From an uncultured Acidobacteriaceae bacterium (GTDB lineage Bacteria > Acidobacteriota > Terriglobia > Terriglobales > Acidobacteriaceae): a DNA stretch of 64,000 nt. Where the stretch lies: the NCBI GenBank assembly GCA_963745845.1, contig CAVUZE010000007.1, forward strand, positions 130,672 to 194,671, read 5' to 3'. Positions 6,566 to 53,396 of the stretch are shown here, piece after piece; positions within the stretch are counted from its first letter, which is position 1; each line of letters begins with the position of its first letter. The position numbers were made by a program, and so were the translations under genes. The notes under the pieces are model-generated. The model did no database searches. It was not told the origin of the DNA and saw nothing but the letters and a program-made list of their open reading frames with translations.

Positions 6566-6595
6566 GGGTGCCTCGGGTCTCGTTGAGACCTCGGA
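6566..6595. repeat. Type-B REP-like palindrome (degenerate)
   Basis: GGGTGCCTCGGGTCTCGTTGAGACCTCGGA, preceded by GAAAAT as at 47359; same design as 47365-47439 and 53364-53396. Confidence 0.65.
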
Positions 6596-9208: not shown

Positions 9209-9967
9209 ATGAGCGATCCTTTGGTTCAACCAGTGGCCGAGCAGGCGCCCGGTCTCTCCCAGTTGCAGCGCGTCACCAACACCTTCAGTGCACCGTCCAA
9301 AACATTTGCCGACATCAAGCGCGGTAACAAGAGCTGGTGGATGCCCTTCATCATCTTCACTCTTGTTGGCTATATCCTCTTTGCCACGGTCGCTTCCAAG
9401 ATCGGGATGCAGCAGGTGGTCGAAAACCAGATTCACCTCAGCCCCAAGCAGGAGCAGAATCTGACCGAACACCCCGAGCAGCGCGAAATGACGCTGAAGA
9501 TCTCGCTCTACATCACGGAGGGCGTTTTCCTTGGGAATCCTCTTCTTCTGTTGATCATCGTTGCAATCGGCTCACTGGGCCTTTGGGGTACCATTAACTT
9601 CCTGTTTGGCGGCAAAGCCACGTACGGCAGCATCTTCACCGCCTGGATGTATGCGGGCTTGCCCGGCATTTTCAAGGTCCTGCTGGGCATCATTGTCATC
9701 TTTGCGGGAACGGCTCCGGAGTCGTTTAACATCAAGAACTACGCCCCCACGAATCTCGGAGCCTTTCTCAATCCGCTTGAGACGCCCCCCGCGCTCTACT
9801 CATTGGCCACTTCGCTGGATGTGGTCACGATCTGGACACTCGTACTGCTCGGCATGGGCACAGCCATGGTCGCAGGCGTCAAACGCACATCTGGCTACAT
9901 CGCCGTCTTCGGGTGGTGGGCCCTCTTTGTGCTTATTGGTGTAGGGGTCGCCGCAGTGACCGGCTGA
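9209..9967 (+). CDS. YIP1-family membrane protein
   Basis: FSAPSKTFADIKR..SWWMPF followed by 5 TM helices; GGAA/GAGG upstream. Confidence 0.75.
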   Translation: MSDPLVQPVAEQAPGLSQLQRVTNTFSAPSKTFADIKRGNKSWWMPFIIFTLVGYILFATVASKIGMQQVVENQIHLSPKQEQNLTEHPEQREMTLKISLYITEGVFLGNPLLLLIIVAIGSLGLWGTINFLFGGKATYGSIFTAWMYAGLPGIFKVLLGIIVIFAGTAPESFNIKNYAPTNLGAFLNPLETPPALYSLATSLDVVTIWTLVLLGMGTAMVAGVKRTSGYIAVFGWWALFVLIGVGVAAVTG

Positions 9968-9983
9968 TGGCGAACATCATTTC

Positions 9984-10022
9984 AAACAAAAACGGCGCGC
10001 ATCTCAATGATGTGCGCCGCTT
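9984..10022. terminator. Probable bidirectional terminator between the YIP1 gene and fabF
   Basis: CGGCGCGCATC-TCAAT-GATGTGCGCCG stem with an A-rich run on the left (T-rich on the minus strand). Confidence 0.65.
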
Positions 10023-10067
10023 CATTCTGTTTCCTGTTGCCTAGTCCCTTTTCCCTGCTTTTGTTCC

Positions 10068-10103
10068 GGGGTTCCCGGCGACAGGTCTTCGTCACTGGGG
10101 TGG
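10068..10103 (+). repeat. Type-A REP-like hairpin
   Basis: GGGGTTCCC-GGCGAC-AGGTCTTC-GTCACT-GGGG-TGG, directly after the fabF stop. Confidence 0.85.
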
Positions 10104-10104
10104 G

Positions 10105-11352
10105 TTACTCGGTCCACCGCCGCATGATCAGCGTGGCGTTAATGCCGCCGAACCCAAATGAATTCGACAGTGCGACGTCGAAGCTGTGCGCAACGGCTTT
10201 ATTCGGCACGTAGTCCAGCCGGCATTCCGGATCGACGTTCTCAAGATTCGTCGTCGGCGGCAGCATCTGATTCTGCAGTGCCAGCACCGTGATGCCTGCT
10301 TCGAGGCCACCGGCGCCGCCCAGCAAATGGCCGGTCATCGACTTGGTGCCGCTCACCTTGAGCTTGCCGTTCAGCGCGTGCTCGCCGAACACCAGCTCAA
10401 TTGCGCGGGACTCGTTCCCATCGCCGGCCGGGGTCGATGTCGCATGGGCATTTACATAGCCCACTTCTTCCGTCCGAATGCCCGCGTCCTTCAGAGCTGC
10501 CCTCATGCTGCGCTGCGCGCCTGCGCCATCGGGAGCGATGCCCGTCATGTGATGCGCATCGGCGCTCATCCCATAGCCGATGACCTCGGCCAGAATCTTC
10601 GCGCCGCGTGCTCTGGCAAATTCCAGCTCCTCAAGAATCAGCACTCCGGCGCCTTCGCCAATCACGAATCCGTCGCGGTCTCTGTCGAACGGCCGGCTGG
10701 CCCGGGTCGGTTCGTCGTTGCGCGTCGAGAGCGCACGCATCGCCGCAAAACCGCCTACCGATAATGCTGTCACCGATGCTTCAGTGCCGCCGGCAATCAT
10801 GACATCGGCGTCGCCGTGCATAATCATGCGCACCGAGTCGCCGATGGAATTGGCGGATGTGGCGCACGCCGTCGCCGTAGCGGAAATCGGTCCCTTGGCG
10901 CCGTAGCGGATACTCAGTTGTCCCGCCGCCATGTTCACGATGACAGCGGGGATGAAGAAGGGCGAGATTTTGCGTGGGCCACCGGCGAGCAGGTTGGAGT
11001 GTTCGCGCTCAATGATTTCGAATCCGCCAATGCCCGAGCCGATAAAAACGCCGGTTCGATCGCCGATCTCTGGTGTGATCTGAAGACCCGACTGGGTGAT
11101 GGCTTCGTGGGTGGCAGCAAAAGCAAAGTGGATGAAGCGCCCCATCTTGCGCGCTTCTTTTTTGTCTACAAAGTTCAGCGGATCGAAATTCTTCACTTCG
11201 GCGGCAAAGGTGACCGGAAAGCCCGTCGTGTCGAAGCCCTGAATGGGGGCCATGCCGCTGGCCCCTGCCAGTAACTGTCGCCACACCTCCGGGGCGGTAT
11301 TGCCTACACCGCATACCAGCCCGAGGCCGGTGATGACAACTCGACGATTCAC
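10105..11352 (-). CDS. fabF: 3-oxoacyl-ACP synthase II
   Basis: RRVVITGLG, catalytic TACATS, AHATST and KSMTGHLLG, SNSFGFGG. Confidence 0.97.
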   Translation of the reverse strand: MNRRVVITGLGLVCGVGNTAPEVWRQLLAGASGMAPIQGFDTTGFPVTFAAEVKNFDPLNFVDKKEARKMGRFIHFAFAATHEAITQSGLQITPEIGDRTGVFIGSGIGGFEIIEREHSNLLAGGPRKISPFFIPAVIVNMAAGQLSIRYGAKGPISATATACATSANSIGDSVRMIMHGDADVMIAGGTEASVTALSVGGFAAMRALSTRNDEPTRASRPFDRDRDGFVIGEGAGVLILEELEFARARGAKILAEVIGYGMSADAHHMTGIAPDGAGAQRSMRAALKDAGIRTEEVGYVNAHATSTPAGDGNESRAIELVFGEHALNGKLKVSGTKSMTGHLLGGAGGLEAGITVLALQNQMLPPTTNLENVDPECRLDYVPNKAVAHSFDVALSNSFGFGGINATLIMRRWTE

Positions 11353-24060: not shown

Positions 24061-24669
24061 CTAGCGCGCTTGTTGTTGCACCGGCGGGCGCGGCGCAGAG
24101 GGCGGCGCCTGTTGTGCTGGCTTCGGCTTTGCCCCTTCCTTCTTCGACGGCGCCAGGATGGCGTGCAGGATGGTTCCTTCCATGCGCGGCATAAACTCCA
24201 CCGTCCCCGCTTCGCCGATATCTTGAATCAGCCGGTTGATGATGGCGTATCCCAGTTCGCGGTGGGCCATCTGGCGGCCACGGAAGCGCAGGCTGGCCTT
24301 CACCTTGTCGCCTTCATTCAAAAAGCGCACAGCCTGGTTCTTCTTGGTCTGGTAGTCGTGCTCGTCCACCGTGACCGAAAACTTGACTTCCTTGATGGTG
24401 ATGACCTTTTGCTTCTTGCGGGCGGCGCGCTCGCTCTTCTCTTTTTCGTAGAGGAAGCGGCCGTAGTCCTGAATGCGGCAAACGGGTGGAACGGCGGTGG
24501 GCGAAACTTCCACCAGATCGAGCCCGCGCTCGCGGGCGATCTTCAACGCCTCAAAAGGAGGCAGGATTCCCAGTTGTTCGCCGTTTTCGTCGATGACGCG
24601 AATCTCGCGTGCCCGGATGCGATCGTTGATGCGGATAAAAGACTTGGCCGAACGTTTATCGAGTGCGAT
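24061..24669 (-). CDS. infC: Translation initiation factor IF-3, non-AUG (ATC) start
   Basis: RINDRIRAREIRVID, DLVEVSP, IKEVKF, GDKVK; GGAGGAG SD followed by AACC-ATC at 24669. Confidence 0.95.
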   Translation of the reverse strand: MALDKRSAKSFIRINDRIRAREIRVIDENGEQLGILPPFEALKIARERGLDLVEVSPTAVPPVCRIQDYGRFLYEKEKSERAARKKQKVITIKEVKFSVTVDEHDYQTKKNQAVRFLNEGDKVKASLRFRGRQMAHRELGYAIINRLIQDIGEAGTVEFMPRMEGTILHAILAPSKKEGAKPKPAQQAPPSAPRPPVQQQAR

Positions 24670-24729
24670 GGTTCTCCTCCACTTGGGGTTCGCAGCTTCC
24701 GGTTCCGGGGCCATCCGGAACGGTAAAGG

Positions 24730-24871
24730 GGTTCCACAATTACTTTTCCCCGAAGCACCGCCGCCAAGTGGCTTTTTCCTTCCGGGGTCCCCGGCGACAG
24801 GTCTTCGTCGCTGGGGTGGAAGAAAATGCCAACTTGCACGACAGTGGAAAGGGCATGTGAATTGTGGAACC
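24730..24871 (-). promoter_or_regulatory. ~140-nt rod-like hairpin in the infC 5' leader
   Basis: Perfect 12-bp inverted repeat GGTTCCACAATT (24730-41) / AATTGTGGAACC (24860-71) enclosing further pairings and a type-A repeat at the tip. Confidence 0.6.
24784..24819 (+). repeat. Type-A REP-like hairpin
   Basis: GGGGTCCCC-GGCGAC-AGGTCTTC-GTCGCT-GGGG-TGG. Confidence 0.9.
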
Positions 24872-24898
24872 GCTCTAAAAAGCCCACGAACGCACCCT

Positions 24899-24909
24899 GA
24901 GTATAGCAT
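24899..24909 (-). promoter_or_regulatory. Extended -10 promoter for infC
   Basis: TG-C-TATACT on the minus strand ~30 nt upstream of the rod hairpin. Confidence 0.55.
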
Positions 24910-24938
24910 TGGTTTGGTTGCAGCCGCGCCAGGTTTGG

Positions 24939-24956
24939 GCGCAAAGAGGGTGGGAA
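24939..24956. repeat. Half (right arm) of a type-B palindrome
   Basis: GCGCAAAGAGGGTGGGAA resembles GCGCGAAAGGGTGGGAG at 25851-67. Confidence 0.4.
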
Positions 24957-26582
24957 TCAATCCGCGGCAAACGACTCCGAAATTGCTGAAAGCTCCTTCG
25001 CTTCAACACTCGACAAGTTACCCTGTGCATCGATTCCGGTAACGCGCACTCGGACGCTTTGATTGGCGGGGAGGGATCCATCCACCTCGACCGGCAGAAA
25101 ATTCTCGGTCAACGCTGAAGTCCGGCCCAACTGGGCCAGCGCCTCCGGGGTGTGCAGAGTGATCGCGTCGAGTTCCTGGCCCACAAATGCTTGCCGGTGC
25201 GCCAGGCTCTTTTCCGCAGCCAAGGCGCGCATTGCAGCCATGCGCTCTACGACGACCTCGACAGCAACAGGGTCCGCTGCATGCAATGCCCAGGCGCGCG
25301 TTCCGGGCCGCGGCGAAAATGGGAACAGGTGCAGATAGCCGAAAGGCAGCGCGCGCACAAATTCGAGTGTCTCCTCGAACTCGGCATCCGTTTCGCCGGG
25401 AAAGCCCACCATGACATCGGCGCCGAGGGTTAACTCAGGTCCCGCGGCTCGCACCAACGCCGCAACTTTTTCGGCATAGTGCCACGGCCGGTAGCGCCGG
25501 TGCATGCGTCGCAGCACTGCGTCCGACCCGGATTGCAAAGGCAGATGCGCATGACGAGCCAGACGAGCACCCCAGCTCCCCGGACCTGTCGTTGGGGCTC
25601 CTGGCTTACCCTGCCGATGAATGGGATTCGCCGACCGCGCAGGTCCGCCGAACTCCGCCATCAGGCCGATCAACTCGGCATCCCAATCCATCGGCTCAAT
25701 CGAGCTCAATCGCAGCCGCGGCAATTCTGTTTGCGCAAAGATTTGCCGCACCAGGCTGGCTAGCGATGCAGGCGTCGCGGCCGAACTCCGTGCCCCATCC
25801 TTTCGGCTCACCGGGGTCCCCGCGGACAGGTCCTCGTCCGTGGGGTGGTCGCGCGAAAGGGTGGGAGACCACGCATCTCGAATTTCATTTGTCTCGCCTG
25901 CAACTGCAAGGTCCCGTCCCCACCGGCCTAAATTAATGCCGGAGAGGACCAGCTCGATTCCGCCTGCCGCAACAAATCCCTCTACCTGCCGCATCACGGC
26001 CGCGCCGGGCAGACTTCTAGACGAGCCTCTCGTTTGCGGGATGACGCAGAACGAGCACCGGTTTCCGCAGCCTTCCTGGATCTTCAAATTCGGCCGGGTC
26101 TGCGCGCCGGGAACCACCTGTGCTTCGGCTAAAAACGAATGGGCGAAAGAATCATCGGCAAGAATGAGAGGCGAACCGCTGCCCGCGATCAACGATGCCA
26201 TGCTCACTAGTCCTGCATTCGACGCAATCGCATCTTGCCCAGTCACTAGCCCGAGAGCAATCTTCGGCACGGATGCTTTGTGGCTGTTGCCCACAACCGC
26301 CGCGACTCCAGCCAATGCCGCCAGTTCCTCAGGCGCCCGCTGCGCATAGCAGCCCGTCGCCACAATCCGCGCCTCGGGATTGAGCCGGTGGGCTCGGCGA
26401 ATAAACGCGCGCGCTTCACGATCGGCTTCGGCGGTCACACTGCATGTGTTCACGACGATCACATCGGCTTGCTGGGCCTGCCGTTCCGAACATCCGGACG
26501 CGTTCAATTGCGCGGCAATTGCCTCGCCATCGGCCCGGGCCGCGCGGCAGCCGAAGTTCTCAATGTGAAACGAAGATCCCAC
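24957..26582 (-). CDS. mtaB: tRNA t6A37 methylthiotransferase MtaB (radical SAM) with two repeat-derived in-frame insertions
   Basis: ENFGC, VNTCSVT, TGCYAQ, KIQEGCGNRCSFCVIP (CxxxCxxC), HLPLQSGSD, DVMVGFPGE, FPFSPRPGT; GTG start at 26582. Confidence 0.9.
   Translation of the reverse strand: MGSSFHIENFGCRAARADGEAIAAQLNASGCSERQAQQADVIVVNTCSVTAEADREARAFIRRAHRLNPEARIVATGCYAQRAPEELAALAGVAAVVGNSHKASVPKIALGLVTGQDAIASNAGLVSMASLIAGSGSPLILADDSFAHSFLAEAQVVPGAQTRPNLKIQEGCGNRCSFCVIPQTRGSSRSLPGAAVMRQVEGFVAAGGIELVLSGINLGRWGRDLAVAGETNEIRDAWSPTLSRDHPTDEDLSAGTPVSRKDGARSSAATPASLASLVRQIFAQTELPRLRLSSIEPMDWDAELIGLMAEFGGPARSANPIHRQGKPGAPTTGPGSWGARLARHAHLPLQSGSDAVLRRMHRRYRPWHYAEKVAALVRAAGPELTLGADVMVGFPGETDAEFEETLEFVRALPFGYLHLFPFSPRPGTRAWALHAADPVAVEVVVERMAAMRALAAEKSLAHRQAFVGQELDAITLHTPEALAQLGRTSALTENFLPVEVDGSLPANQSVRVRVTGIDAQGNLSSVEAKELSAISESFAAD
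25567..25601 (-). repeat. Degenerate type-A repeat inside mtaB
   Basis: Minus strand GGAGCCCC-AACGAC-AGGTCCGG-GGAGCT-GGGG-TGC; encodes GAPTTGPGSWGA. Confidence 0.65.
25790..25872. repeat. Composite type-B palindrome carrying a nested type-A hairpin (25813-25848), inside mtaB
   Basis: GTGCCCCATCCTTTCG ... GGGGTCCCC-GCGGAC-AGGTCCTC-GTCCGT-GGGGTGG ... CGAAAGGGTGGGAGACCAC; read as WSPTLSRDHPTDEDLSAGTPVSRKDGAR. Confidence 0.85.
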
Positions 26583-26699
26583 AAAACCAGTGTAGGACAA
26601 TGCGCAAACCGGGGTGGCGTTGACCCGAACTCTGGCCCACACATCGCGAGGGCGATATCACAATCCTCCTTCAATTCCTGTGCTAGACTCCCTCACGTT

Positions 26700-29710: not shown

Positions 29711-30079
29711 ATGCCTCGCGTAAAACGCAGTACCAAACGCAACGACCGCCGCAAAAAAATCCTTGATCGGGCGAGCGGTTACTTCCTCACTAAATCCAAG
29801 CTCTATCAGGCAGCGCAGGAAGCCGTGGAGCGCGGCCTCAAGTTTGCCTATACCGGCCGCCGCCAGAAGAAGCGCCAGTTCCGCTCCCTGTGGATCGTAC
29901 GCATCTCCGCAGCCGCCAAGCTGAATGGCACAAGCTATTCGCAATTCATCAGCGGATTGAAAAAGGCCCGCGTCGAGCTCGACCGCAAGATTCTTGCCGA
30001 CATCGCCGTCCATGACGCAGCAGGCTTTACCAAGCTGGCCGAGCAGGCCAAAGGCGCTCTGGCCAGCAAAGCAGCATAA
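29711..30079 (+). CDS. rplT: 50S ribosomal protein L20
   Basis: [35 protein letters not shown]. Confidence 0.98.
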
Positions 30080-30093
30080 AGACAACCCGGACT

Positions 30094-30128
30094 GGGGCCC
30101 CATTGACAGGTCTTCGCCGATGGGGTGG
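30094..30128 (+). repeat. Type-A REP-like hairpin
   Basis: GGGGCCCC-ATTGAC-AGGTCTTC-GCCGAT-GGGG-TGG, 14 nt after the rplT stop. Confidence 0.8.
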
Positions 30129-46248: not shown

Positions 46249-47325
46249 ATGCCCATCACAGAGACACCAATCAAGGTGAACGAACCCGACGATCCAGCGG
46301 GCGCCGGACTCGATTCTCAGAGTCCCGGACAGCCTCCGCTTCCCGACGAAGAGCCAAACCCGGCTCCGCGCTCCACCTCACGTTGGGTCGACTACGACAC
46401 CCACGAATTGCTGGAAATGATCAGCGAGCTCGAAGACGAGCGCCGCTGGGCCCGCTTGCGCGAAGGCATTTGGCTCGCGCTTCTCATCCACATCATCCTG
46501 ATTTCCGCCATCACCTGGATCCCGAGGTATGTCTTTCGCGTGCCTCCGGTCATCGATCCCTTCGACGCCATCAAGCAACGCAAAGACCTGAGCTATCTCG
46601 ACTTGCCGCCCGATCTTGTGCGCAAGTACCAGCAACCGAAAGTGCAGATCAAGCCGGTTCCGGAAAAGCAGCCTCGAATCGACAAGAAGACCCTGGAGGC
46701 GATGAATAAACCCACGCCCCCGCCACTTCCGGCGCCCACCACGCCGCCCAAACTGGAAAACCCGGTGCAGCCGCAGCCCACGCCTCCCCCTCCGCCGAGC
46801 CCTAAACAGGAATCTCCCGTCGAGGCTCCCCACCCGACAGCGGTTCCTGCTCGTCCCAGCTTCGCCATGGGCTCGCAGAACCCGGCCGACCAGCTTCGGG
46901 AGGCAATGCGCGGCGCCGCGCAGAATCAGGGCGCGGACTCCGCCGCTCAACCGGTAGGAGGGCTGTCTCGGCACCCTGGCGCAGGGGGCGGCGTGCAGAT
47001 TCTTTCCGACACCCAGGGCGTCGATTTCAATTCCTGGCTGCATCGCTGGTACTACGAGACCGAGCACACATGGGACCCGCTCATCCCCGATGAAGTCAAC
47101 CCGCCCATCTTGAAGTCAGGAGCTGTCCAGATCCGCTTCAAGGTTCTTCCCAACGGGCAGGTCACGGACATGGTGCTCGAAGGCCGTTCCGGCGACACAG
47201 GGCTCGATCGCGCTGCCTGGGGCGCGATTACGGGCTCGAACTACCCACCTCTGCCGCGCGAGTTCCATGGGCCCTATCTGGAGTTACGGGCGCTGTTCTT
47301 GTATAACGAGAAGCCACCCCGGTAA
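46249..47325 (+). CDS. TonB-family protein (TM, Pro-rich linker, TonB_C)
   Basis: Single TM, Pro-rich region, ILSDTQGVDF..W, IRFKV..NG..TD...SG...LDRAA..AI...YPPLP. Confidence 0.82.
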   Translation: MPITETPIKVNEPDDPAGAGLDSQSPGQPPLPDEEPNPAPRSTSRWVDYDTHELLEMISELEDERRWARLREGIWLALLIHIILISAITWIPRYVFRVPPVIDPFDAIKQRKDLSYLDLPPDLVRKYQQPKVQIKPVPEKQPRIDKKTLEAMNKPTPPPLPAPTTPPKLENPVQPQPTPPPPPSPKQESPVEAPHPTAVPARPSFAMGSQNPADQLREAMRGAAQNQGADSAAQPVGGLSRHPGAGGGVQILSDTQGVDFNSWLHRWYYETEHTWDPLIPDEVNPPILKSGAVQIRFKVLPNGQVTDMVLEGRSGDTGLDRAAWGAITGSNYPPLPREFHGPYLELRALFLYNEKPPR

Positions 47326-47364
47326 GAGAGCGCGGTCTCGCACAGCCTCAGTCAGCAAGAAAAT

Positions 47365-47439
47365 GGGTGCCCAGGTCCGGGGTTCCCACGAGCACGTCTT
47401 CGTTCGTGGGGTGGAGATCTCGATTTTTGAGACCTGGGA
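47365..47439. repeat. Composite type-B palindrome carrying a nested type-A hairpin (47379-47414)
   Basis: GGGTGCCCAGGTC-C-[GGGGTTCCC-ACGAGC-ACGTCTTC-GTTCGT-GGGGTGG]-AGATCTCGATTTTTGAGACCTGGGA, between convergent genes. Confidence 0.88.
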
Positions 47440-47469
47440 GAGCCTCCTGAGGAAAAGCAGAACAGCCGC

Positions 47470-48876
47470 CTATTCGACGAACGTCCCTCTGTCTTTCCCA
47501 TCGGTAAAAAGCGGCGTTTCATCGCTGTCGAAGTCGCTGTCATCTGCCGGAACCGGTTCTGGTTTCTCGTGGAGATGAATGCCGTCCTGCTCCAGCAGCG
47601 CTTCGTAAACGGGCGTCTGCCGCCAGTGCCGCGCCAGCGCAAAGGCGCTCATGTTGGCGATCATCAAGGGCAGCACCAGTCCATAGCCGCCGGTCATTTC
47701 GAAGATGATCAGCACCGACGTCATCGGAGCGCGCACAATGCCCGCAAACACCGCGCCCATACCCACCACGGCAAATGCGCCGATCGAGTCGGCCGGGTGG
47801 TGAAAGACAGTCACATCGATATAACCCACTGCGCCGCCCAGCATACCCCCCATAAAAAGCGCTGGCGCAAAAATACCGCCCGCGCCGCCGCTTGAATAGG
47901 ATGTGACCGTGGCGGCCAGCTTGAGCAGACACAGCACAATCATTGCGATCACCGGAATTGTTCCGGAGAACGACTGTGTCAGCGTCTTGTAAGGGTCGCC
48001 GGCGATGCCGCCCAGGTGAAAGAACTGGAGCCCGACAACCGCGAAGGCGCCCGTAGCTGCGCCACCGAGCGCCGGATGCACCCACTTGGGGACCGCGTTA
48101 AACCGCTTGAACCACGCGCGCACGCCAAGCAGTGAGTCGGTGAACGCCACCGACACAATCGCCGCGAGCAGTCCCAACAGCGCATACCAGATCAGTGAAG
48201 AAGCGTTGCCCATTTCGAACGCCCGGGGCACGTGAAAGATGGGATTGGCTCCCATGATGGTGTGCTCGACCACTGCTGCCAAAGCTGCAGCAACGATGAC
48301 GCCCGAAAGCATCGTTTGGTCAAGGTCGCCGATCAGTTCTTCCAGCGTGAAGGTCACGGCAGCGATCGGCGCATTGAATGCTGCCGCAATGCCCGCCGAC
48401 ATACCCACGGAGGCCATGCGCCGGCGGCTCTCAGGATTCAACCGAGCAGCGCGCGCCAACAGACTGCTCACGCCCGCACAAATATGAACGGTCGGGCCCT
48501 CAACCCCCAGTGAACCGCCGGACCCAATCTGCATCACGCACAGAACGAATTTGGCAATCGTCTCGCGCGCTGAGATGAACCCTGACCGCAAGGTAAACGC
48601 CACCTTCACCTGGGGAATGCCGCTGCCCGCCGCCGCAGGTGCAAAGTAGTAGAGACCCAGTCCGCACACCAGACCGCCGAGCGCAGGGCTCAGAATCGTC
48701 CACACAATCCAGGAATGATTGCCGGGGTCCGCATGTCCCGCCGCTGCCCGGTCAATCAGAAGGCCTTCGAGCCAGGCCACGCCCTTGTGGAACGCCACAG
48801 CTGCCAGCCCGCACAATCCGCCGGCCAGGATCGTAAACGCCAGAAGTCGCTGCCGCTCGTTCGGCATGCGGCGCAT
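47470..48876 (-). CDS. ClC-family H+/Cl- antiporter
   Basis: GSGIP, LGVEGP (gating Glu), FTLEE (proton Glu), GIFAP, VY; no CBS domain. Confidence 0.9.
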   Translation of the reverse strand: MRRMPNERQRLLAFTILAGGLCGLAAVAFHKGVAWLEGLLIDRAAAGHADPGNHSWIVWTILSPALGGLVCGLGLYYFAPAAAGSGIPQVKVAFTLRSGFISARETIAKFVLCVMQIGSGGSLGVEGPTVHICAGVSSLLARAARLNPESRRRMASVGMSAGIAAAFNAPIAAVTFTLEELIGDLDQTMLSGVIVAAALAAVVEHTIMGANPIFHVPRAFEMGNASSLIWYALLGLLAAIVSVAFTDSLLGVRAWFKRFNAVPKWVHPALGGAATGAFAVVGLQFFHLGGIAGDPYKTLTQSFSGTIPVIAMIVLCLLKLAATVTSYSSGGAGGIFAPALFMGGMLGGAVGYIDVTVFHHPADSIGAFAVVGMGAVFAGIVRAPMTSVLIIFEMTGGYGLVLPLMIANMSAFALARHWRQTPVYEALLEQDGIHLHEKPEPVPADDSDFDSDETPLFTDGKDRGTFVE

Positions 48877-49028
48877 CAGCCACGCGAGCACGCGCGTGTA
48901 TAAACCCGTGAGCCCAACCCAATAACTCAATTTCTCTGCTGACCTCGAAAGATAGACCCTTCTGCTCCAGTATAGGGGTGGGTCAGTGCCGATTGGACTT
49001 GCGAAGACCGATGGCCGCGGCCGCACCG

Positions 49029-50135
49029 TTACGGCTTGGGTTCGGTGCTCCGCATAAACTCCGCCAGGTAATCTTTCCAGACCGCAGCCATCGTATGCGT
49101 TCCATGCCCGCGTGTCGCGTCTGAAATCGGAATCAAAATGAACTGCGCGTTGGGAATCCGCTTCACCATCTTCTCGGCGATGCCCAGCTCCGGCGGATTG
49201 ATGTAATCGTCCGCGGAGTTGATCCATAGCACCGGTGCTTTGATCTGCTCCAGGTGCGGGCTCGGATCGTAGTTGCGGCTCGCGTTGAAGTAGTAGATCA
49301 TGTCATTCGCATCCGGGCTTGGGCGCGCCCAGAAGCGATCGACATACTGCTCGGCCGCTTCGCGCGTCGGCGCCTGCTTCTGCATCTGCAATGGGCTCGA
49401 TCCCATCACGAGAACAAGCGTGTTGGCCAGCCGCAATCCCTCCACCGGCTCCGTCTTGTACTCGCCGCCCATCCACGCCGGGTCAAGTTTGATTGCCTGG
49501 ATCGACATGTAGCGCATCATGCGGTTGCGGCCCGCAATCTGCACCGGAAGGCAGGCGAACGGTGCCAGCGCATCCATGAAATGGGAGTAGGTCTCCCCCC
49601 ACACAAAGCTCTGCATGCACCCCATCGAAGTTCCGAGAATCAACCGCAGATGATCCACCTTCATTTGGTCGAGCATCATGCGCTGGCTGCGCACCATATC
49701 GTCGTAGTCGTAGGCGGGGAAATGCGCATGCAGGCCGTCTGAGGGCTTCGAGCTCTCCCCGTGTCCAATGTCGTCGGGAAGAATAATGAAATACTTCTGA
49801 ATGTCCAGGACGCCGCCCGGCACAAACAGCACATCGGAGAACACCGGATTCAGCAGAGAATGTGCGCTCCCGCCGGTGCCGTGCAACAGAAGAACCGCGT
49901 TGTCTACATGCCCGGCCGCATTGCGATGGGGCTTGCCCAGCGTGAGGTAATGCAGCTTCAACTCCGGCAGCGTCTCGCCTGTGCCAAAGCGAAAGTTGGG
50001 CAGAGTCACCGTACCGTCAACCGCCGGCCATTTGCTCGCGGGCTGTGGAGCGGGCGTGGGATTGGATTGTCCGAAGCTAAAAGCGCACAACAAGATGAGA
50101 ACTGTGCCAATCACGCGGGCGGCGCGCAAGATCAT
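49029..50135 (-). CDS. Secreted alpha/beta hydrolase, homoserine O-acetyltransferase-like
   Basis: Signal peptide; LHYLTLG, LLHGTGG, GTSMG nucleophile, SADD, GHGTH. Confidence 0.8.
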   Translation of the reverse strand: MILRAARVIGTVLILLCAFSFGQSNPTPAPQPASKWPAVDGTVTLPNFRFGTGETLPELKLHYLTLGKPHRNAAGHVDNAVLLLHGTGGSAHSLLNPVFSDVLFVPGGVLDIQKYFIILPDDIGHGESSKPSDGLHAHFPAYDYDDMVRSQRMMLDQMKVDHLRLILGTSMGCMQSFVWGETYSHFMDALAPFACLPVQIAGRNRMMRYMSIQAIKLDPAWMGGEYKTEPVEGLRLANTLVLVMGSSPLQMQKQAPTREAAEQYVDRFWARPSPDANDMIYYFNASRNYDPSPHLEQIKAPVLWINSADDYINPPELGIAEKMVKRIPNAQFILIPISDATRGHGTHTMAAVWKDYLAEFMRSTEPKP

Positions 50136-53363: not shown

Positions 53364-53396
53364 GGGTGCCCCAGGTCCGGATTCTCGGACCTGGGA
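53364..53396. repeat. Type-B REP-like palindrome (empty)
   Basis: GGGTGCCCCAGGTCCG-GATTCT-CGGACCTGGGA between convergent acnA and pyk. Confidence 0.85.

Follow-up and report, generated by a model that had tools for sequence, protein, structure and literature searches.

The closest described counterparts of the repeats reported here are the REP sequences of E. coli and Pseudomonas with their BIME and REPIN arrangements and their RAYT genes (PMC2817692, PMC3116915, PMC3337134). These are characterized by a 5'-tagged palindrome, subfamilies of stem sequence, clustering of copies and a RAYT gene situated between inverted copies; the tag is GTAG or CGTC, corresponding to the two superfamilies of Di Nocera 2013. 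REP nesting in palindromic targets, insertion of IS elements into REPs and in-frame palindromic inserts are already on record (PMC3733652, PMC3116915). For nesting, the closest precedent is GTAG-23 of T. roseum, a small palindrome that sits within CCGSSCC(n3-4)GGSSCGG palindromes, of which hundreds of empty targets exist; further cases are GTAG-15 of A. variabilis and CGTC-1 of H. neapolitanus (Di Nocera et al. 2013, PMC3733652). Targeting of REPs by insertion sequences is attributed to Tobes & Pareja 2006, as cited in PMC3733652 and PMC3116915, and Rickettsia palindromic elements (RPEs) are summarised in PMC3733652 as small palindromic repeats located in frame in housekeeping genes. Of the Y1 transposases, the acidobacterial enzymes form a separate group (PMC3733652), and those of IS608 and ISDra2 target the lagging-strand template (PMC6006769).

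The window analysed here, a stretch of 64,000 nucleotides from an uncultured bacterium of the Acidobacteriaceae, contains two kinds of hairpin repeat, termed type A and type B. At 47365-47439 the two are combined (Table 1). The host B repeat has the design GGGTG-CCCAGGTCTC-loop-GAGACCTGGG-A and is broken after CCCAGGT by a type-A core followed by AGAT. Deletion of these 42 nt in silico yields GGGTGCCCAGGTCTCGATTTTTGAGACCTGGGA, a perfect 10-bp palindrome which folds into a 33-nt hairpin (DNA fold -11.9 kcal/mol, z -6.9). Restoration of a clean palindrome on removal of A and its junction had been proposed in the initial annotation, as had a near-duplication of the junctions AGGTC/AGATC, and both observations are borne out. 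The near-duplication is general, since the 4 nt before and after the A core agree in at least three of four positions in 38 of 109 copies, compared to about 10 expected. The two empty B copies, the two A-filled B copies and the third A copy capping the infC leader rod, all listed in the same annotation, are likewise present with the sequences given in Table 1, the empty copy at 6566-6595 being degenerate. Convergent genes border the focal composite, one for a TonB-C-domain protein (46249-47325, + strand) and one for a CLC channel (47470-49227, - strand). In the nearest relatives, the orthologues of 46900-47900 either lack both B and A or consist of unrelated DNA. Since no intermediate state is found at this site, the mtaB site was used for the orthologue comparison.

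Table 1. Positions of type-A and type-B features in the 64-kb window.
Feature	Position	Strand	Sequence and remarks
5' part of focal host type-B (REP)	47365-47376	+	GGGTGCCCAGGT = head GGGTG + 5'-arm start CCCAGGT; head and arm match 43 empty B1 copies
Upstream tetramer of duplicated pair	47373-47376	+	AGGT
Type-A core, 38-nt hairpin	47377-47414	+	CCGGGGTTCCCACGAGCACGTCTTCGTTCGTGGGGTGG = CCGGGGT / TCCCACGAGC / ACGTCTTC / GTTCGTGGGG / TGG; DNA fold -9.6 kcal/mol, z -3.0
AGAT, imperfect downstream copy of pre-core AGGT	47415-47418	+	core + AGAT = 42-nt insert
Remainder of focal host B	47419-47439	+	CTCGATTTTTGAGACCTGGGA = 5'-arm end CTC, loop GATTTTT, 3' arm GAGACCTGGG, then A
Empty type-B (REP) hairpin	53364-53396	+	GGGTG-CCCCAGGTCCG-gattct-CGGACCTGGG-A; z -4.2, clean
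Empty degenerate type-B-like hairpin	6566-6595	+	GGGTGCC-TCGGGTCTC-gtt-GAGACCTCGGA; z -1.8, 13/200 shuffles fold equally well
Type-B hairpin with A in loop	25790-25873	+	arms CCCCATCCTTTCGG / CGAAAGGGTGGG, different from focal arms; A core 25811-25848
A core capping imperfect host hairpin	24782-24819	+	host hairpin GGCTTTTTCCTT..AAGAAAATGCC; upstream of, and antisense to, IF3 domains of infC (minus)
Solo A core	10066-10103	+	between convergent yip1-like (9209-9967, +) and fabF-like (10105-11352, -) genes
Solo diverged A core	30091-30128	+	just past stop of 122-aa ORF 29711-30079 (+)

The window contains five A cores, all on the + strand. As judged from its weak fold, the hairpin at 6566-6595 is a decayed B copy. 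The filled B at 25790-25873 lies antisense within the mtaB reading frame (24957-26642, minus strand); a second mtaB stretch, at 25566-25644, is missing from most relatives and probably represents a further repeat insertion. On the minus strand of 24640-24960, the IF3 domains of infC begin at residue 111 of a 299-aa ORF, so that the roughly 300 nt upstream are regarded as leader. The type of flank found around the A copy of the infC leader recurs at four further A copies (C7:583658, C8:1545844, C6:69377 and C2:36123). T/C-rich heptamer tracts (TGTTCCC and variants) are located beside several A copies, in the window at 10020-10058 and elsewhere at C1:140100-140220, C6:42200-42330 and C8:2031000-2031830.

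Type B is the REP family of the genus, and it is new, lineage-specific and equipped with a non-GTAG tag. Its general form is (c)aatccGCACGAAaat-GGGTGCCCC-arm-loop-arm'-GGGAAAGCACGAACC, with GGGTGCCCC as conserved head and GGGAAAGCACGAAC as conserved tail. At least 166 copies are detected by a strict head-plus-palindrome test (head GGGTG, tail GGGAAAGCAC), mostly with a stem-loop of 27-28 nt, and the arm subfamilies include B1 (AGGTCTC / GAGACCT), B2 (ATCCTAGC / GCTAGGGT) and B4 (CGGTCCC...). All hallmarks of the REP/BIME/REPIN systems can be recognized: an imperfect palindrome of 20-40 nt, tagged at the foot of its 5' side, more than 150 copies, stem subfamilies, clusters, and RAYT genes between inverted copies. 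Only the tag is different, being GGGTGCCCC and neither GTAG nor CGTC. Five Y1 genes are present in the genome, three of which reach 102-107 bits and exceed the 80-bit cut-off of NF047646, the NCBIfam model for REP-associated tyrosine transposases. One of these RAYT genes (C8:1358273-1359076) lies between two identical B copies in inverted orientation, C8:1358393(+) and C8:1359057(-), and a second one (C8:1533690-1534409) between B4 copies; the two remaining Y1 genes encode IS200-like TnpA proteins. The third RAYT gene (C8:116119-116700) is bracketed by an unrelated inverted REP, GTAACAGGGCACGACTTCAGTCGTGCC, and the genome consequently holds at least three REP/RAYT pairs. In relatives, seven RAYT loci (L212, L216, L221, L226, L228, L230 and L232) are flanked by inverted B copies, each of its own arm subfamily. 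B copies are probably spread by REP-associated tyrosine (HUH/Y1) transposases, and the comparison with BIME- or REPIN-like composites drawn in the initial annotation is apt.

The distribution of type A was determined with a covariance model seeded with the five copies of the window. A search of the 6.38-Mb genome gave 123 matches at E ≤ 1, and an iterated nhmmer search converged on 113 copies; merging of tandem arrays reduces about 110 copies to 100 units. Conservation begins and ends abruptly, resulting in a 38-nt core with constant borders in all contexts and the consensus CCGGGG-T-CCCC-nnn-GAC-AGGTCTTC-GTC-nnn-GGGG-TGG. When 91 distinct copies taken from many genomes are compared, pairing in the 10-bp stem amounts to 97.5%; the three free stem positions often show compensatory changes, and none of 500 shuffles attained the covariation score. 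Type A thus shares with REP families the short conserved palindrome at high copy number. A cognate RAYT gene was looked for within 1.5 kb of the five Y1 genes of this genome and at 30 RAYT loci of 20 relatives, and no A copy was found there. Neighbouring A copies all lie on the same strand in direct arrays, and the copy list contains none of the inverted pairs characteristic of REPINs. With regard to MITEs, A is far below their range of 70-300 bp, its sole inverted repeat is its own hairpin, and a 4-nt duplication accompanies a minority of copies. A appears to be a second, smaller hairpin element with a frame similar to that of B, GGGGTCCCC...GGGG, which presumably is or was mobile on its own.

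Tandem A arrays are direct, with a period of 42-43 nt, equal to the core plus four bases; five units are located at C7:20253-20468 and six in another species. At C7:20239-20490, the five tandem units occupy site 1 of one B1, with AGGT after each unit and AGAT after the last. All 18 genomes sampled from the genus carry type A, in one to at least 65 copies each, and it is nearly absent from the sister family; in a scan of public genomes, matches were confined to Terracidiphilus/Acidobacteriaceae assemblies plus a few neighbours. A literature search found no description of Terracidiphilus repeats of these types.

By a loose test 47 of 100 A units are nested in B, and by a head-plus-tail test 38 of 109 copies. 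As B occupies 0.09% of the genome and 0.5% of the non-coding DNA, this enrichment corresponds to a binomial p of about 1e-80. Under strict scoring, which counts as filled only those composites whose host palindrome can be cleanly rebuilt, the genome-wide catalogue comprises 139 empty and 27 filled B copies. In all 27 strict composites A is co-oriented with the host B and occupies one of a few fixed positions. About 14 of them carry A after CCCCAGGT, at position 8 from GGGTG, with exactly 4 extra nt; in two, A is located three bases further along with seven extra bases, and in the remainder it lies in or beside the loop. Overall, the insertion positions in B are 7-8, 11 and, in the loop, 14-19. 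The commonest site, which includes that of the focal copy, is accordingly situated in the 5' arm of the stem, three bases short of the loop, and not in the loop itself. The choice of host is equally narrow: B1 copies with AGGTC arms are filled in 23 cases and empty in 43, whereas B2 copies with ATCC arms are filled in one and empty in 48 (odds ratio 26, p=5.6e-6). In other species, the same nesting is found at the same site with the species' own B1 arm variants.

These counts qualify the earlier proposal that A prefers pre-existing hairpin tips. Targeted nesting in B is supported (38-47 of 100 units), but the preference is for one REP subfamily, that with AGGTC arms, and the main site lies in a stem arm, so that hairpin tips are too general a description. 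The flanks of A were also examined for inverted repeats, using the longest perfect stem that encloses the core. Outside B, this stem reaches at least 6 bp in 5 of 53 units, compared to 3.3% expected at random sites (p=0.03), a weak signal barely above random. Looser measures of flank complementarity (duplex energy against re-paired flanks or random sites; spanning pairs in minimum-free-energy folds) had a high background without discrimination and were dropped.

The order of events can be read from mtaB. In the orthologous genes, no insert is present in four relatives (G061, G045, G058 and G017), an empty B with a 10-nt loop in three others (G063, G003 and G004), and B together with A in the present genome. 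The empty B of G063 has the same arms as here (CCCCATCCTTTCGG / CCGAAAGGGTGGG). Because the site shows none, B only and B plus A, A is taken to have entered B secondarily, and the simplest history would be B first and A second. The composite is also not a fixed unit devoid of an empty counterpart, since empty B copies with the same arms exist both in this genome and at the orthologous mtaB site. Type A is probably a second hairpin element inserted secondarily into REP family B, mostly into B1, and it would move as single-stranded DNA at replication forks, with a Y1/RAYT-type enzyme acting in trans.

An unlikely alternative is that B1 plus A constitutes a single replicating unit, in which one ancestral fusion has been copied whole by the B-type RAYT and most filled copies are not independent. 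Such a unit would explain the stereotyped junctions AGGT-core-AG(G/A)T-CTCG in about 14 copies here and in further ones in other species, the recurrence of the odd AGAT variant over hosts and species, the orientation of A, which is always that of its host, its restriction to one B subfamily, and the occurrence of B1+A within a larger multi-copy MITE-like repeat. However, A stem alleles such as GGCGAC/GTCGCT are common to site 1, loops and solo copies, and the alleles found in composites are a random sample of all A (allele-versus-context permutation p=0.65); the stem variants are not linked to context. Moreover, several distinct insertion positions are used, the mtaB site has a same-arm empty B in another species, A alone inserts into genes, other repeat types and other A copies, and one B1 carries five A units in tandem. 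While these points favour independent secondary insertion of A, the AGAT junction, which recurs in several species and hosts, suggests that some B+A composites also spread as units. The MITE-like repeat itself, a 110-nt element with terminal inverted repeats CTAGGTCTCTGACCGCG and a central empty B, is found at C8:139765-139874 and near C8:971700 (rc index 3062342). In other species (loci L127 and L129) it measures 152-153 nt and carries A at site 1. A 145-nt relative at C2:892076 has the same ends and a D-type core instead.

About half of the A units are located outside B, several of them in coding sequence without a host hairpin. In gltX (C8:1477810) and mutS2 (C2:323964), A adds 42 nt in frame compared to aligned relatives, and in gatB (C7:116748) 39 nt. 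In all three genes, it is translated in the same frame and read as G-x-P-x-DRSSS-x-G. As in the case of Rickettsia-type palindromic elements, the inserts are in frame in conserved genes of which orthologues without insert exist. The same reading is found for an in-frame A at C8:3530392, where absence from relatives was judged from BLAST hit lengths alone. Further A copies have another A copy, a D-type hairpin or a leader-like hairpin that recurs as their host, or lie in unique sequence. The D-type repeat GTCATCCTGAGCG...GCGAAGGATCTGC occurs at C6:329419, C6:384331, C8:2249889, C8:3117469 and C2:562714, with A beside or in place of its inner hairpin; this inner hairpin, GGGGCCCCACnnnGTGGGGTAAGCG, has a GGGG-CCCC..GGGGT frame as in A. 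For solo A outside B, the flanks agree in at least three of four bases in 11 of 49 copies, compared to 3.4 expected (p=0.0005). The duplicated tetramers vary by site (AGGT, TTGA, GAAG, AACA, CTTG, GATG and others), and in many A copies the flanking duplication is imperfect or absent.

The gene context of these copies bears on a very improbable explanation, namely that A is a selected structured element (a terminator, an mRNA-stabilising hairpin or a protein-binding RNA) recruited at many loci, with flank complementarity extending its stem. It would be in line with the strong conservation of the hairpin by compensatory changes, with G.T wobbles on one strand only, and with the position of several copies just past stop codons or between convergent genes. 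In tandem intergenic regions, however, 21 copies are sense and 21 antisense, without preference for the direction of transcription, and about 30 units lie within ORFs on either strand; these genic and intergenic counts are approximate, as they were obtained with a quick codon-usage gene caller that did not detect mtaB and fused the infC ORF with its leader. Orientation of A follows GC skew and not transcription, species within the genus differ in copy number, from a single copy to more than 65, and tandem arrays as well as precise 42-nt absences in relatives are observed. A search of the whole window with Rfam covariance models at gathering score returned no match, and the A hairpin is not followed by a U-tract. 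On the orientation and coding-region data, the reading of A as a terminator or RNA motif was rejected.

A marked strand bias is in line with the preferred explanation, insertion of a mobile A. The written strand coincides with the C-rich strand for 33 of 41 solo A, 34 of 35 A in B and 89 of 109 empty B copies, compared to 46% of genes. With 80-97% of A and 82% of B on the C-rich side, both repeats display the orientation bias of an IS200/IS605-type mechanism, and the shared bias points to transposition of single-stranded DNA. A bias of this kind is the hallmark of Y1/HUH transposition coupled to forks (PMC6006769) and agrees with B being a substrate of RAYT. The window conforms to this pattern, combining a negative GC skew (-0.043) with location of every A and B copy on the + strand. 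Positive skew follows dnaA (C2:14278), as expected if skew tracks the direction of replication. On contigs C8, C2 and C1, GC skew changes its sign more than twice. The flips, located near 1.0 and 3.66 Mb of C8 and near 0.46 and 0.9 Mb of C2, suggest rearrangements, several replicons or joins made during assembly; skew is accordingly only a local proxy for replication direction. The G.T wobbles are confined to one A strand, and this wobble-tolerant strand lies on the presumed leading-strand template, opposite to IS608.

Since A has the GGGG-CCCC...GGGG frame of B, we infer that it uses the route of B in trans. According to this model, A would travel as single-stranded DNA at forks and be processed there by the Y1/RAYT-type enzyme, and extruded B1 hairpins at the same forks would expose their tips as target. 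Insertion is mostly into B with AGGTC arms and always in host orientation, the site being located in the 5' arm behind CCCCAGGT or within the loop, and it usually adds 42 nt, made up of the core and a repetition of the four bases before it. Other repeats, other A copies and, in frame, genes have been entered as well, and repeated insertion or slippage may give rise to the 42-nt tandem arrays. Three features do not agree with the IS608 pattern. IS200/IS605 elements such as IS608 and ISDra2 (PMC6006769) generate no target duplication and insert next to a fixed tetra- or pentanucleotide, on its 3' side, unlike A with its variable 4-nt flanking duplication. Their active strand is on the lagging-strand template, a polarity apparently opposite to that of A. 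Finally, no A-flanked transposase was found among the Y1 genes of this genome and the 30 RAYT loci of relatives. Similarities to these elements are the hairpin-defined ends, the replication orientation bias and the presence of Y1 HUH superfamily enzymes in the genome. A simple IS608-like model, with a fixed target tetramer and no duplication, was rejected, as the flanking tetramers vary.

Spread of A by replication or repair in place of a transposase is considered improbable. Stalled forks might allow template switching or microhomology-primed copying between hairpins, or REP-like hairpins with a common GGGG-CCCC...GGGG frame might undergo gene conversion. Such a route could account for flanking tetramers that are short, variable, often imperfect and microhomology-like, for the lack of an associated enzyme gene at 5 Y1 genes here and 30 RAYT loci in relatives, and for a strand bias fitting a fork-associated process. 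In addition, a common frame is found in A, B and the inner hairpin of the D-type repeat, and the loop of A, CAGGTCTTCG, is similar to the arm of B1, CAGGTCTCG. This route is contradicted by the sharp 38-nt borders, which are constant in all contexts, by insertions in unrelated coding sequence without hairpin or homology, and by the repeated use of the same few B1 positions. A more specific version of mobility is conceivable, albeit with considerable reservation: A might be a hyperparasitic, gene-less 38-nt mobile hairpin that is specialised on the extruded hairpins of one REP subfamily on one replicative strand, is moved by an enzyme encoded elsewhere (a RAYT borrowed in trans or another activity), and leaves a 4-nt duplication.

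Compared to the known systems, A resembles REP, BIME and REPIN sequences in size range, hairpin, high copy number and vertical, lineage-restricted inheritance. It differs from them by its GGGGTCCCC tag, the missing flanking RAYT, direct 42-nt arrays in place of inverted doublets, the 4-nt duplication and its location largely within another REP family. Unlike the palindromic targets of T. roseum and the other cases cited above, the target B is itself a RAYT-associated REP, insertion is mostly into a stem arm, one subfamily is preferred, and a three-state orthologous series gives the order of events. Insertion sequences directed at REPs, of which IS1397/ISKpn1 and members of the IS110 family are examples, likewise use the REP hairpin as a preferred, position-specific target; they are, however, full insertion sequences with their own transposase, whereas A is a non-coding element of 38 nt. 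The SDR repeats of heterocystous cyanobacteria are reportedly hairpin-like mobile repeats of 20-30 nt that are often nested in other repeats, and they are not known to involve a REP/RAYT host family. A and SDR have in common that they are very small nested hairpin repeats, but SDR come from a different phylum and are unrelated in sequence. In-frame location in housekeeping genes (here gltX, gatB, mutS2 and mtaB) connects A with RPEs (summarised in PMC3733652), which are about 100-150 nt long and for which no nesting in REPs is reported, in contrast to the nested A of 38 nt. In conclusion, A is an orphan REP-like hairpin parasitising B, a lineage-specific variant of known bacterial repeat systems and not a new principle.

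For annotation, these repeats are of immediate relevance, as A and B inflate ORFs, split domains such as the radical-SAM domain of mtaB, and mimic leaders or terminators. Beyond this, the movement and target choice of REPs and other very small bacterial repeats are still largely unsettled. The genus is a compact natural system in this respect, as it combines three or more REP subfamilies, every one paired with a RAYT, with a 38-nt orphan hairpin directed at defined positions of one subfamily. Empty and filled states within and between species, a common replication-strand bias and in-frame inserts in essential genes are further assets. If it is true that RAYT mobilises A in trans, cleavage, the preference for stem arm or loop and the way in which the 4-nt duplication arises would be testable with oligonucleotides and one purified protein. 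If A proved to be a hyperparasite of the kind outlined above, its single-strand or hairpin-targeted mode of insertion would be new to both REP/RAYT and IS200/IS605 systems.
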